From positions 186,001-217,099 of the forward strand of contig QPGO01000133.1 in NCBI GenBank assembly GCA_008632985.1: DNA of 31,099 bases, read 5' to 3'. Positions 12,424 to 21,744 of the stretch are shown piece after piece. The stretch's first letter is position 1. The number at the start of each line of letters is the position of its first letter. The stretch comes from Psammoneis japonica (taxonomy: Eukaryota). The position numbers and the translations under genes are program-made. Under the pieces are notes generated by a model. It saw only the letters and a program-made list of their open reading frames with translations, was not told where the DNA came from and did no database searches.

Positions 12424-13664
12424 GGCTCTAGCTAGCTAGGGGCCCTACTATTTTCCGGATTCTCCAAGGTCCGAATGGCGAATGGTTCTATAGCCTATAG
12501 CGCACACGCCCGCACAATGTCGTATTTCCGGCAGGTGATTGGCACAGCACTCGTTTTTGGTTGTTGTTTTGATCTTCAACTACAGTGCAGTAACTGGTGT
12601 GATAAGACCCTCGTCATTCAAGGCAACGTCCATAACGTTTCTGTATTCTGTAATCAATGGGGCCCTACACCCGTTCTGTGTCAGCGCGCGGCCCATAGGC
12701 TCAAGCTCAAGAAATGGGCTGGCATGAAGGCCGCCACGGTGAATCCCATTCTGCGAATACGGGTTGGCCTGCGCGCTTTTTTGCTGTCTTTTCTACGCAT
12801 ATGTTGGTATTAAAAAATTACGTGCAACATGAGAATTTTGTTTTTTCTCCCCCTCCAATCCACGCAGCGCTGTACTTTACCATTGACGAGTCGTTTTGAG
12901 ATGTTGAAGAAGACTGTGATTTCGAAGAATGTGATGACATTCCACCCAACATTGAGAGTGGGTGTCGAACACTGCCACAGAATCGTGAGGACGCGAAGCT
13001 GTGAACAGATGCAAATTTTGCCAACTGCTCTTCTGACAAAAAAATCAAAAGCTGCCACACTTGACATTTCCACAAAAATGTGTTGCTGCTCTTTCATTTC
13101 CTCCAAGTTGTCTTGAACAGACATCAACATTGCCAGCTCATGCCTCTCTCCACCCCAACCATGGCATGGTGTCAAGTCATTTTGAGGCTCGTCGGCGACA
13201 GGAGCTTTCTCGTCATCAACGGCATCCACCTTGTCACATGCCTTCACGGTGCATTTTGCAATGCAAGCATCAACAGACTTAATGGATCCCTTCTCAATTG
13301 CATCCAACATGCCACTTTTGGTTATTCTGCCTCGAATGCCGCCATTCTGGAGCACACGATGAATGTCTCTTGCATTTGGCCATCAGCCGTTTCCCGTCAG
13401 AGCTCACCAAGACGTGTGCTGTCAAAAGAGTGAGAGCATCGTTGACTCTCTTTTTAATGGGACAGCCACTTTTTTCTTTCCTGTGGCACTGCTCTCTTTT
13501 TTCCTGGCTGGATGCCATGGCTGCACGAACGACGATGATGGCTGATGATGTTGTGTGAGAAAAATGGAGGTTCAAATGACGAGTGCTGAATCACGCAGAA
13601 ACATGCGCACCTTGTCAACGCTTGGCAAGGTCGGCCATGGCGAAAAAGAGACGGCATTTTCACA

Positions 13665-13768
13665 ACAATGGAAGGTGGGGCATCGGTCGCCGATGGCATG
13701 TTCGAGCCTTTAGAGTGTCGAAAGGGACCAATGCAATCATCGGCGACCGATGCCCCACCTTCCATTGT
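13665..13768. repeat. Perfect 31-bp inverted repeat with 42-bp spacer
   Basis: acaatggaaggtggggcatcggtcgccgatg (13665-13695) and its exact reverse complement (13738-13768). Confidence 0.95.
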
Positions 13769-14210
13769 GCTCAAAATGTTGACGGCGTGACGACGCCATT
13801 TTGCCGTGCTGTGTCGTGGTGAAAAACACTTGAAGGGTCACAAAAATCCATCATCTGACGGACAGATGATGGGCCAAACATTCGCAAAAAAGGTTGCACA
13901 TCGGCGTGCATGAAATTGTTTTAGGATGTGGTTGTTGATCATTTTTCCGTTGAGACGACATGCCAGCCTGTTTCTTGAACTTGAGCCCATGCGCGGCCAC
14001 TCCCAAGCGGCAAAACGTGCATCACCGGCCAAGGTGCAAGAAAAATCGAAATCTTCATTTTTCCTCATTTTCTCCCTCTTTTTCAACACCTCGCGGTGCA
14101 CCTTTTTGTGCATCGTCTTGCGGCGAACAGCAAGCAGCAAAGCACGATGTGAATGAACCGACAGCTGCTGTTCCGAAATCCGTTCCGACCCTGCTGCACT
14201 GTCCTCTGGG

Positions 14211-14606
14211 GACGCGTTCCAGACACAGGTGGGAATCCGTGTGACATTGGGCCCGCAGAATTCTGCGTGCGAGCTCCGCAGTGAAATTGTGCGGCAATCA
14301 GAATGTCAATGTTCGCCAACAGAAAATGAGGCAATTTTGCGAACGCACAAACTCGCACATGATTGAAGTGCATCGATTTTTACCCAGCCAGTTACATTCT
14401 TCAGACATTGAAGAATGCAACTGGCGCATTGTTGTTTCTATAAATGCGCCATGTAAAACGTCTGGGGCTTCGCAAAACAGCAAGTCTGGACAATTTTTTT
14501 TAAATGTCACACGTAGAAATGTGCGCGCGAAACATGCGACGGATGACAAAAATTGTTTGTGTCACACGTCAGTGCTGCGAGCTCCCACCCAGGGCTGGAA
14601 CACGTC
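14211..14606 (+). mobile_element. MITE (non-autonomous TIR transposon), TpA-eroded copy
   Basis: 396 bp with ~24-bp imperfect TIRs (GACGCGTTCCAG...GGTGGGA). 4-bp TSD TGGG at 14207-14210 and 14607-14610. Colinear with 16931-17325. Confidence 0.93.
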
Positions 14607-19801: not shown

Positions 19802-19855
19802 ATGCCATGCTGCAGTGCTCCACATGGCATGCCATGCTGCAGTGCTCCACATGGC
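19802..19855. repeat. Perfect 27-bp tandem duplication
   Basis: atgccatgctgcagtgctccacatggc occurs twice in tandem. Confidence 0.9.
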
Positions 19856-20891
19856 ATGCATCATCAAGTGGTGCTGTGCAGAAACACCTGTGGCTGGGGG
19901 GGGGGGTGCAGGGTGGATCATCCATGTGTGGACATGAGAAAGAATGACCCCAACCAAACAGAGGAGAGTCAAGACACCCCAGATCTTGGTTTCCAAGCTG
20001 ACAGTGCCCGCAGCACTGTGTGAGAAGCATGGAAGGAGAGAATCAATCATGCACTCTCTGAATGAGATTTTCACATGAGACTTCAAACAAACTCTCCTGT
20101 GTTGGAAACAGTGGAGACCCCTCTGCAGATGGCTGACAAATGAAGCTGCCTGTGCTGTCTTTGCAAGCCCACACTCTGCCATTTCTGCACTCAGTGCATC
20201 TTTTTTTTTTGTGTTGGAAATTTAGTTCAAAAAATTGGCAACAGGAGAGAAGAGAAACACAGTGAGAAAAGATGGCCAAACTTGTTGCTGCTCACCAGAG
20301 CAGCACAGATGCAGCCTCACAGATTCCACAGCTTTCCTTGACCTGACTTTCTTGAAGCCTTGCACAGTCTCTCAACAGAGCAATGCCACAAAGGATGTTC
20401 ATCCTCTGCTTCCCCATGCTCTTCATTTTGTGATGGTTTCAAATGTCACTTGCTTTGTGTCACATTGCACTGCAGCCCACATGAGTGAAATTTTTTGATG
20501 CTCTCCTCCTCTGAGAAAAGCACACAAAGTAAAACAACCAAGTCAATGATGGAGCAAAAGAGACCGCCAAGATTTCAGAGTGTGTGTGAGTTGTCCCATG
20601 GTGTGAACAAAGAGCTGCTCAGGGCAAGTTGTTGCTTTGGAGTTTTCAGAAGAATGGTGGGCAAAAGCACTTGACTGAGTCCTCCATCTTGCTGCTGCTG
20701 CAGCAGCAAAGGTTTCTTTAAGACACTCGCGCCTTGTCCAGGAGGCCCTCTTGCTCCAAACAGCCACTCAACCCACACAGCTCAGCTGCGGTGCTTGGCA
20801 TTCTCAATGACTGAGCACCTCCACAGCTGCCCCAGCACAGAAATTTCATCAGCCATGGTTGAGCAATTGCAAAGTGACAGCACACCAAAAA

Positions 20892-20930
20892 GTGTGTGTG
20901 TGTGTGTGTGTGTGTGTGGGGGGGGGGGGG
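20892..20930. repeat. (GT)n microsatellite fused to a poly-G run
   Basis: A gtgtgt... tract followed directly by about 13 G. Confidence 0.9.
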
Positions 20931-21744
20931 TCATTTGACTCACTTCCACATGTGGTCATGACATGATGTGCCAAAAATGCAAAAGTGAGCTCCTGGTTGA
21001 AAAATGCTGCACTCAGACAAGCCAGCGGTTGTTGCTTTGTCGTTCTTTTGCAGCATTGTGGGTTCTTGAGTTCACAAAAGGAGGCGCTGTTGCAAACATG
21101 AAGCACACACCCATTTCCTTGGGTCAGCTGCCAACAATGTTGCGTGGCTTTGTCAGGCAATGGTGAGTGTTGTTCTTGAGCCACACAGCATGAGAGACAA
21201 TGCGGCAGCCACAAAAGTTGTCAAAAGCAGTTGGTTTTGCTTCATGTGCTGGTTTGCACCAATTGTCAGCCACAATTGGTGTTGCATCATCTCCCATGAG
21301 AGAACTGAGCCATGGCTTCAAGTGGTGTTTTGGGCTGCCCAACAGCAAGGGGGCGGATTCTCAGCAGTGGTGCTGAAAAAGGCATGGCGCGCACCGGCTG
21401 ATCGCGTGGCTCGTCACTGCAGTCAGGTGTCACCACCTCGAGCAGGGTGCTTTTGGCTGTGCAGGTGGGTTGCGTGTGACTGGGGCTGTGCTGACATGAT
21501 GATGTGTTTGGTGAGCGATGGGTGAGGTCAAGCTGCCTAACGTGATGCTTGCATCGTTGATCGGTTTCCGGAGGGTGCAGCAGGATCACAACACGGCATG
21601 GCATCATGCATCAAGCAATCACGTGGCAACATCGGGGTTCTGTCAGTCTGTCAGTCACGATCGTGTAGCGTTGCTTTTGCCGTGTATTGTTGCGTGTTCG
21701 TTACGCGTTTTGTTGCCCAAAATCAGTGCTCAAGACGAGAAACC

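Follow-up and report, generated by a model that had tools for sequence, protein, structure and literature searches.

A candidate near-saturated footprint of TpA-specific A:T->G:C hypermutation in intergenic DNA of the diatom Psammoneis japonica

The DNA analysed here (hereafter the window) is a stretch of 31,099 nucleotides from contig QPGO01000133.1 of the diatom Psammoneis japonica, in which genes of ordinary composition are separated by intergenic blocks that have lost nearly all of the dinucleotide TpA. An original prediction, made from the sequence alone, had described these blocks as the product of a 'reverse-RIP' genome defence, named after the repeat-induced point mutation (RIP) of fungi, that hypermutates TpA to TpG or CpA throughout domains rich in transposable elements. 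By reading the block borders from a list of every TpA position, and by taking the observed/expected ratio (o/e) of TpA in the window's genic DNA, 0.61, as the expectation, we delimited the blocks at 1-3572, 8766-10979 and 12879-21665, which make up 14,178 of the 31,099 bases (45.6%) when one 395-bp insert is left out. The three predicted blocks, near half of the window, were therefore recovered with their limits, except that the third is broken by this insert, a TpA-normal copy of a miniature inverted-repeat transposable element (MITE copy B, Table 1), whose dense TpA patch at 16946-17309 is the only interruption. Merely 36 TpA are left in the blocks versus ~540 expected, and the deficit was found in each of five sub-blocks of 1.3-4.3 kb (TpA o/e 0.02-0.09, Poisson p from 3e-17 to 2e-62), with sliding windows at 0.00-0.09 across kilobases versus ~0.6 in genic DNA. 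Concomitantly, TG and CA reach o/e values of 1.5-1.9 in the blocks versus 1.2 in genic DNA, and the genes together with their 250-450-bp flanks retain TpA at ~0.6, both as originally described. CpG is depleted as well in four of the five sub-blocks (o/e 0.17-0.30), the exception being 12879-14210 at 0.89.

Table 1. Purged blocks, transposon-like elements and retroelement remnant in the window
Feature	Position	Strand	Remarks
Purged block B1	1..3572	.	runs off window start; TpA 4 vs 124 expected; CpG o/e ~0.26
Decayed reverse-transcriptase open reading frame	1940..3031	-	364 aa, no Tyr; longest block open reading frame, in B1; candidate assignment
Transition zone	3573..4600	.	intermediate TpA o/e 0.2-0.45; carries diverged tandem repeats
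Purged block B2	8766..10979	.	TpA 6 vs 90 expected; CpG o/e ~0.31
MITE fragment, copy C	9821..9898	+	from repeat comparison with copies A and B
Sub-block B3a	12879..14210	.	TpA 5 vs 53 expected; CpG intact, 66 vs 76 expected
MITE copy A	14211..14606	+	terminal inverted repeats, target duplication TGGG; partly converted, inside block
Sub-block B3a2	14607..16930	.	TpA 13 vs 101 expected; CpG 51 vs 119 expected
MITE copy B	16931..17325	+	target duplication AAAA; 29 TA, normal TpA; makes up the whole TpA island
Sub-block B3c	17326..21665	.	TpA 8 vs 173 expected; CpG 53 vs 250 expected

The passage from purged to ordinary DNA is abrupt. Among 62 non-overlapping 500-bp windows, 23 had a TpA o/e below 0.1 and only 5 fell at 0.1-0.3, so that the TpA distribution within this 31-kb window is bimodal, and the borders drawn from single TpA positions are sharp (8765|9049, 10880|10980, 12878|13280 and 21538|21666). 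The blocks occupy the intergenic spaces and end 250-450 bp from the neighbouring open reading frames (ORFs); B2 spans the whole space between two genes bar flanks of ~250-380 bp, and B3c ends ~70 bp beyond the ATG (21598) of the next gene. How sharply genes are spared is exemplified by a 396-aa ORF on the reverse strand (11233-12423), without a Pfam family and with normal TpA, which is wedged between two purged blocks. The block sequence was also compared with one public sample that contains the stretch (coded runs X1-X3), from which X1 contigs were built out of exact 31-letter words. These contigs match the purged DNA at a mean word depth of 55-70, the same as for the flanking genes, with 0-2 differences per 0.7-1.9 kb, and the matching stretches include 15738-16583, 17300-19167 and 19144-19831; X2 and X3 cover little of the stretch. 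The base-calling artefact that the original prediction had named as a possible refutation was thus not borne out, the X1 contigs carrying the same TG and CA at block sites at single-copy depth, in a single sample that is possibly the source of the assembly.

Where the TpA went could be followed from the dinucleotide balance. The four dinucleotides TA, CG, TG and CA together hold 0.2226-0.2537 of all dinucleotides in the five sub-blocks versus 0.2442 in genic DNA, and since this sum is unchanged, TA and CG have moved into TG and CA rather than been lost. As expected from NTAN->NTGN/NCAN, GpC is raised to 1.17-1.38 and ApT lowered to 0.73-0.79 in the blocks, while AA, GA and CA are not depleted (ApA o/e 1.12-1.35 versus 1.10-1.26 in genic DNA), and GC content rises only slightly (0.46-0.52 versus 0.47). 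At the tetranucleotide level, TATA and TACG fall from 1.89 and 3.38 per kb in genic DNA to 0 in the blocks, and TGTG, CACA and TGCA about double or more, with TGTG and CACA at 12.4-12.6 per kb versus 4.4-5.1 in genic DNA. Three (TG)n/(CA)n microsatellites lie within the blocks, at 9129-9167, 18229-18273 and 20880-20936; they may be (TA)n tracts that this process has converted. Since TAA and TAG have been lost, TGA is the only stop codon that the blocks retain, and many false ORFs of 150-360 aa run through all six frames, so that about half of the 26 ORFs of at least 150 aa in the window lie inside blocks. Against dinucleotide shuffles, the observed maximum ORF length was reached in 7, 146, 11 and 12 of 300 shuffles; as these maxima are only marginally beyond the shuffled ones, the long block ORFs are mostly a by-product of the TAA and TAG loss. 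This makes the blocks an annotation trap, in which false ORFs mislead gene callers and transposons are hidden from profile searches.

The direction of change was read from two pairs of element copies, in each of which the TA-bearing partner was taken as the ancestor. The first pair belongs to a MITE-like element of ~396 bp with 14-bp terminal inverted repeats and 4-bp target duplications, as defined from the alignment. Copies A and B differ at 42 of 397 aligned positions; read from B to A, 30 of the 42 differences are A->G or T->C transitions. The 29 TA of copy B are read in copy A as 11 TG, 9 CA, 1 CG, 1 other and 7 TA, so 21 of the 22 changed sites became TG, CA or CG; conversely, every TA of copy A (7/7) is also TA in copy B, and the CA and TG of copy B are unchanged in copy A at 48 of 51 sites. 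Because the TpA level of copy B is ordinary and not raised, a RIP-like creation of TA in copy B is not the explanation, and as an untouched island in a purged domain copy B is read as a younger insertion. It follows from the same copy that the domain was not mutated uniformly or instantly, and the domain-wide hypermutation originally proposed does not hold in a uniform sense. At sites 9909, 9915, 9918 and 10015, copy C has TG or CA, and X1 contigs of other family copies that read TA contribute about half of the depth there or more; TA is therefore the ancestral state of the family. The family is very high-copy in X1, with a summed word depth of 36,000-45,000 versus ~60 for single-copy DNA, a depth sum that is not to be taken as a copy number. 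Swaps between CA and TG among X1 repeat copies (4 of 35 events shown) were considered as proof of independent TA decay and set aside, since CpG ancestors give the same swaps.

The second pair came from a retroelement. The ORF at 1940-3031 has a single database relative (P0121, E 1.3e-8; pairwise 32% identity, E 3e-19), and RVT_1, the Pfam family of reverse transcriptases (RTs), matches both below cut-off (E 0.11 for the ORF and 0.0085 for P0121); 26 of the 30 Atlas neighbours of P0121 fall in one RVT_1-annotated set. An alignment of the two retrieved 35 related metagenome loci by tblastn (best E 5e-53), of which L010 and L013 pass the RVT_1 gathering score (32.5 vs 29.6 bits), and since these relatives reach the cut-off, B1 contains a decayed retroelement. 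The residue before the conserved I/L-D-D is Cys in the block ORF and Y, F or L in its relatives, and this Cys likely, though not certainly, derives from Tyr. The TpA-purged signature is carried by two of the 35 loci, both from other metagenome projects and both with intact CpG: L013 has a TpA o/e of 0.11 (0.02 in its lowest 1-kb window), TG/CA 1.44 and CpG 1.00, and L015 has 0.21, 1.38 and 1.03, as against TpA of 0.41-0.89 in the other 33. Two further loci, L006 and L007, were not counted, as their TpA is only moderately low (0.37 and 0.27 in the lowest 1-kb windows). The purged environmental copies extend over 1-3946 in L013 and 1-1100 in L015, and in L013 the TpA density is normal again from ~3333, close to the element end.

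Over 3.5 kb aligned with the TpA-normal L010 (75.2% identity), L013 keeps only 6 of the 146 TA and reads 56 as CA and 49 as TG, i.e. 105 of the 140 changed sites became TG or CA, while the other 15 dinucleotides were kept at 40-78%. Genome-letter changes from L010 to L013 comprise 153 T->C and 139 A->G versus 108 and 68 of the respective reverse changes, together with many transversions. The loss of Tyr codons stated in the original prediction was borne out by this pair, as the 10 aligned Tyr of L010 are 5 His, 4 Cys, 1 Asn and 0 Tyr in L013; likewise, 8 aligned Tyr are 5 His, 1 Cys and 2 Tyr in L015, and one Tyr position is Cys in L013 and His in L015. A substitution spectrum of element copies, which the original prediction had named as a way of checking it, thus displayed the excess of TpA->TpG/CpA in both pairs (MITE B->A and L010->L013).

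Both strands are hit about equally, the TG:CA counts of the five sub-blocks being 331:400, 256:238, 131:124, 265:226 and 525:515. The order of TG and CA along the DNA is random at full depth, as in genic DNA (runs-test z 0.06, 0.48, 0.45, 0.10 and -2.04), and balanced counts without run structure argue for many independent events, unlike a processive burst. A trinucleotide preference emerged from the survivors: 24 of the 36 TA left in blocks lie where both strands read T-A-purine (TTAA 9, CTAA/TTAG 14), versus 105 of 666 in genic DNA (p 9e-14), and only 2 of 36 versus 219 of 666 have T-A-pyrimidine on both strands. In the two copy pairs, the hits per available target were 63/116 (0.54) with a 3' C, 44/100 (0.44) with a 3' T, 16/74 (0.22) with a 3' G and 12/58 (0.21) with a 3' A. 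Strand choice conformed to this, with TG:CA at 31:19 where only the top strand reads T-A-Y and 2:12 where only the bottom strand does (Fisher p 0.002; 0.029 for the MITE pair and 0.042 for the L010/L013 pair separately). The motif thus reads as 5'-T-A-Y-3', equally R-T-A on the partner strand, and from these counts a T-A-Y strand appears to be hit about twice as often as T-A-R. A tetranucleotide excess model was also tried for strand choice and was rejected as noisy, with meaningless fractions in several contexts, in favour of the direct pair test.

The relation to CpG loss was examined in units that are not saturated. The log-survival ratio of TpA to CpG is 11 in the MITE pair (TA 7/29, CG 22/25) and 16 in B3a, while in the old blocks both dinucleotides are far gone; by these ratios, TpA appears to decay ~11-16 times faster than CpG in the same DNA. 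As B3a, L013 and L015 are purged with CpG intact, the TpA loss is independent of the CpG loss. Conversion is graded, from 0% in MITE B through 76% in MITE A and 91% in B3a to 87-97% in the old blocks, and the simplest reading is a cumulative, probably episodic process on a domain that MITEs entered at different times.

The nature of the purged DNA was less uniform than its composition. A Pfam scan of 118-119 six-frame block ORFs returned 0 credible families, a homology search with the ORF at 19358-20221 (reverse strand) found nothing, and viral-contig scans with this ORF and that at 15832-16647 (forward strand) found no relatives. Recognisable in the blocks are one RT ORF remnant, three MITE copies or fragments and some moderately repeated stretches, among them B3a, whose summed word depth is 427-1245 versus ~60; the third block has its left limit where such moderately repeated DNA (depth 272-1245) begins. 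By depth, the greater part of the purged DNA is single-copy, including most of B3c, with large parts at a word depth of ~40-130 when likeness of at least 85% is counted. The original statement that all recognisable transposon remnants lie in the blocks was therefore overstated: the RT ORF, MITEs and some repeats do, and none of the 118-119 ORFs has a Pfam hit. Nor are the blocks visibly 'TE-rich' (rich in transposable elements) beyond one RT remnant, MITEs and mid-copy repeats. With most of it single-copy by depth, a repeat-induced process is not supported, and one directed at certain silent or foreign stretches is the better fit.

Several further features were noted in and around the blocks. 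The edge of B1 carries diverged tandem repeats of ~177-181 bp (pairs 74-78% alike) at 3326-4553, which may represent either a satellite purged in part or a gradient where the domain ends. Inside the oldest purged sub-block, at 19797-19859, a tandem repeat with a 27-bp unit (2.3 copies, 97% matches) either postdates the decay around it or arose by local duplication. Downstream of the third block, two divergent head-to-head paralogues with normal TpA, at 23037-25172 on the reverse strand (711 aa, with a Ricin-B lectin domain) and 25997-27748 on the forward strand (583 aa), form a long inverted repeat that is 72-83% alike over >1.8 kb. For one window gene the best named relative is from Seminavis robusta, at 49% identity. 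A Pfam scan of the seven genic window ORFs revealed no deaminase and no TadA/ADAT gene, in agreement with the original statement that the enzyme is not encoded here.

We consider it moderately probable that the blocks record, as a fixed and near-saturated footprint, a TpA-specific A:T->G:C hypermutation of the kind reported for the chlorarachniophyte Bigelowiella natans, and that its agent is most likely a DNA adenine deaminase. Signature, direction, locality, independence of CpG, trinucleotide bias, relative rate and presence in other samples are legible in the compared sequences, and from them we infer which class of enzyme acts, which base it attacks and what kind of mark recruits it. In the proposed mechanism, the enzyme would be recruited to particular intergenic stretches that bear transposon remnants and are marked as silent or foreign, with neighbouring genes spared. 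A TadA/ADAT-like zinc-dependent deaminase is the candidate agent; it would turn adenine in DNA into hypoxanthine (inosine), which would be read as G at the next replication. Each TpA could be hit on either strand, preferentially as T-A-Y, and so would become TG or CA, or rarely, when hit on both strands, CG. Within tRNA, the TadA/ADAT target A34 always follows U33, and the natural site of TadA is U-A-C-G. An offshoot acting on DNA would inherit a preference for T-A and T-A-C, and a 3' C was the highest in the pair test.

Several points weigh against this explanation. The evidence here is a fixed footprint, with no enzyme, inosine or de novo events observed, and the bimodal TpA pattern comes from this one window and not from the whole genome. 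As T-A-Y equals R-T-A on the partner, sequence cannot separate A->G from T->C; of the targeted A->G at TpA on both strands that was originally proposed, the targeting and the two strands are upheld by the mass balance, the two pairs and the random interleaving of TG and CA, and the choice of A->G over T->C is not. Deamination of adenine in DNA has been shown for a single natural ADAT2, whose preference was for GAA and not TA, according to the available part of the report (PMC10354150). The X1 contigs break at the MITE repeat, so the sequence of copy B lacks independent contig confirmation, and copy B could look untouched because an assembler put the family consensus in place of a high-copy repeat. 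The confirming runs are all from one sample, possibly the assembly's own source, with platform unrecorded. Most block DNA has no recognisable origin, so the proposed aim at transposons or foreign DNA is drawn from one RT remnant, MITEs and mid-copy repeats. Lastly, L010 and L013 also differ by numerous further substitutions (C->A 159, A->C 120), and with 75% identity and this many other changes L010 only approximates the ancestor.

The alternative that survives best, though we hold it unlikely, is directed at thymine: a JBP/TET-like oxidase would make 5-hydroxymethyluracil (5hmU) at R-T-A in silenced DNA, and mispairing with G or faulty glycosylase repair would fix T->C. Its footprint would be strand-symmetric, T-A-Y being R-T-A, so every sequence result fits it equally. 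In dinoflagellates, 5hmU is reportedly enriched at TpA and TpC, which speaks for this possibility; a literature search for 5hmU with TpA found nothing relevant. We met no evidence for 5hmU being highly mutagenic or present in diatoms, and the authors of the B. natans study favour adenine deamination in the part of their preprint available (bioRxiv 10.64898/2026.01.13.699255).

A by-product of error-prone patch repair is distinctly less probable. Here a Pol-eta-like polymerase, engaged in repairing deaminated 5-methylcytosine (5mC) in methylated transposons, would mis-insert G opposite T at WA. The somatic-hypermutation hotspot of Pol eta is WA, with TA the strongest, but AA is also hit, transversions occur, and the process lies downstream of C deamination. 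The CpG depletion in four of five sub-blocks is what methylated DNA would show; however, ApA is not depleted (1.12-1.35 vs 1.10-1.26 genic), transversions are few in the MITE pair, with A->G and T->C accounting for 30 of its 42 differences, and TpA was purged by 91-96% with intact CpG in B3a and L013. With TpA purged while CpG is intact, CpG damage cannot be the trigger.

Change at the RNA level, i.e. ADAR-like A-to-I hyperediting of double-stranded retroelement RNA that is then reverse-transcribed into the genome, we regard as very improbable. The retroelement remnant in B1 and the environmental cases, which are RT elements, would suit it, as would the preference of ADAR for U upstream of the edited A, as stated in the available part of a preprint (bioRxiv 10.64898/2026.01.13.699255). 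It is largely refuted by the MITE, a DNA-type element with terminal inverted repeats and target duplications that was converted in place (A vs B); since the copies vary from locus to locus, the changes postdate insertion. Moreover, kilobases of single-copy DNA without a recognised element were purged, and ~95% of TA was converted with AA, CA and GA unaffected. ADAR also favours a 3' G, not the 3' pyrimidine preferred here.

Barely credible is a native composition, in which foreign or structural DNA never had TA or TA is selected against: the depletion itself and nothing more agrees with it, while the mass balance closes, homologous copies with normal TA exist in both pairs, Tyr codons of intact relatives are His or Cys in purged copies, and the block DNA is decaying and non-coding. 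We give as little credence to a sequencing or assembly artefact, or to base modification in a modified chromatin domain, with the modified base mis-called as G or C: that the confirming runs are one sample of unrecorded platform, maybe the assembly's source, leaves it some room, but the exact word contigs reproduce the blocks at full single-copy depth, MITE A is converted in part only, other metagenome projects yielded the signature again, in 2 of 35 contigs, and a mis-read modified base would give strand-coherent reads, all TG or all CA at half depth each, which the random full-depth interleaving of TG and CA without strand coherence rules out.

Beyond the adenine deamination favoured for this locus, we tentatively propose, as possible rather than probable, a conserved defence of at least stramenopiles and rhizarians, in which a T-A-Y DNA adenine deaminase would be recruited to silenced transposon or viral DNA and would outpace methyl-CpG decay ~10-fold, leaving its saturated footprint in diatom genomes and in environmental contigs. 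If this were true, the TpA loss would erase Tyr codons, TATA-like signals and TA-rich transposon ends. RIP is the textbook case of self-mutation of invaders, and a process that erases TpA is its mirror image, reported once before, in one chlorarachniophyte; its footprint in a diatom, and also in environmental contigs that are unrelated, points to wide occurrence among marine algae and not to a curiosity. The T-A-Y motif and the relative rate provide yardsticks for enzyme candidates, and the identity of the enzyme can be approached by comparative genomics, by setting the presence or absence of the footprint across algal genomes against their deaminase gene content. Should the agent be a natural DNA adenine deaminase acting in double-strand context, it would be relevant to base-editing research.

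Compared with known systems, the decay of CpG through 5mC gives the same TG and CA products and accompanies the TpA loss in four of five sub-blocks, but it cannot remove TpA, and TpA was lost with intact CpG in B3a, L013 and L015. Fungal RIP is likewise a defence-like transition hypermutation of non-genic or repeated DNA that ruins transposon reading frames. It changes CpA to TpA, so making TpA and AT-rich DNA, needs duplicated sequence and comes in a premeiotic burst. RIP runs C->T (PMC7296669, in the part of the text available), whereas here TpA is destroyed, GC is not lowered, the TA-bearing MITE copy has ordinary TpA, most purged DNA has single-copy depth and the events appear to have accumulated independently. 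The original prediction was thus right that neither RIP, with its opposite direction, nor 5mC deamination, given TpA loss with intact CpG, can explain the blocks; its 'reverse-RIP' label is misleading in implying repeat induction, as most purged DNA is single-copy and so is the target in B. natans, as far as the available preprint text describes it.

Editing by ADAR of double-stranded RNA or by APOBEC3 of cDNA is similarly an enzymatic base deamination against selfish nucleic acids. These enzymes edit RNA or replication intermediates at some sites, ADAR with a 5' U bias for A->G as stated in the accessible text of bioRxiv 10.64898/2026.01.13.699255, unlike the present case, in which resident chromosomal DNA was changed at ~95% of TpA and in no other A context. 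The tRNA deaminases TadA and ADAT2-ADAT3 are A->I zinc deaminases, and their U33-A34 and U-A-C-G sites match the T-A-Y and T-A-C bias seen here. Amphioxus ADAT2/3 deaminates A and C in DNA and prefers GAA, TCG and hairpin loops, according to the part of the report available (PMC10354150); the difference from the present bias lies in the GAA preference of BjADAT2 for adenine in DNA and in its favouring of hairpin loops. Taken alone, this activity gives no account of a TpA rule.

The closest counterpart is the hypermutation of integrated viruses from TpA to TpG/CpA in B. natans, described by Mettrop et al. (bioRxiv 10.64898/2026.01.13.699255, cited throughout from part of its text). There, 231 of 302 nuclear point mutations in mutation-accumulation lines fell in two integrated viral regions, one of virophage origin and one a giant-virus insert of ~186 kb that is single-copy and transcriptionally silent (bioRxiv 10.64898/2026.01.13.699255). 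With a single exception, the 231 mutations were A->G or T->C and every one of these lay at TpA; the rate was ~6e-7 per site per generation, a ~1000-fold rise, and 11 of 15 lines were affected (bioRxiv 10.64898/2026.01.13.699255). The B. natans genome has 124 TpA-poor, CpA+TpG-rich clusters, with RT and DDE domains enriched among TpA-poor coding sequences, and the authors favour, without proof, adenine deamination by an ADAT2 homologue; the text available has no mention of diatoms, stramenopiles or trinucleotide context (bioRxiv 10.64898/2026.01.13.699255). The original statement that no characterised pathway does this has therefore to be withdrawn in part, the same signature having been measured in B. 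natans, where the enzyme is likewise not proven (bioRxiv 10.64898/2026.01.13.699255). The searched open-access literature yielded only this preprint and no report of the signature from a diatom.

The two systems are alike in that TpA->TpG/CpA is the only change, with a GC-ward bias and a limitation to particular non-host or silent stretches, and in the long-term clusters depleted in TpA with a gain of CpA and TpG, the RT and DDE domains among TpA-poor sequences and the ADAT2-type deaminase proposed, as far as the preprint's available text goes. By the features that define the B. natans type, the window displays the A:T->G:C bias, the restriction to TpA, discrete regions with spared genes, a foreign or transposon origin being demonstrated in part of the block DNA only, and TpA-poor, CpA+TpG-rich clusters whose values are far beyond the preprint's cluster cut-offs of 0.43 for TpA and 1.52 for TG/CA (bioRxiv 10.64898/2026.01.13.699255). 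They differ in that B. natans is a rhizarian and P. japonica a stramenopile diatom, and in their targets, here intergenic islands of 2-9 kb with a retroelement remnant and MITEs, there the 186-kb giant-virus insert described in the portion of the preprint available. The footprint is saturated here (o/e 0.02-0.09) versus 0.45 in the nucleocytoplasmic large DNA virus (NCLDV) region, and rates were measured there, whereas the present data are fixed differences alone. New relative to the available preprint text are the occurrence in a diatom and in environmental contigs, transposons as targets, the saturation, the T-A-Y preference, the rate over CpG, the separability from CpG loss and the untouched young insertion.

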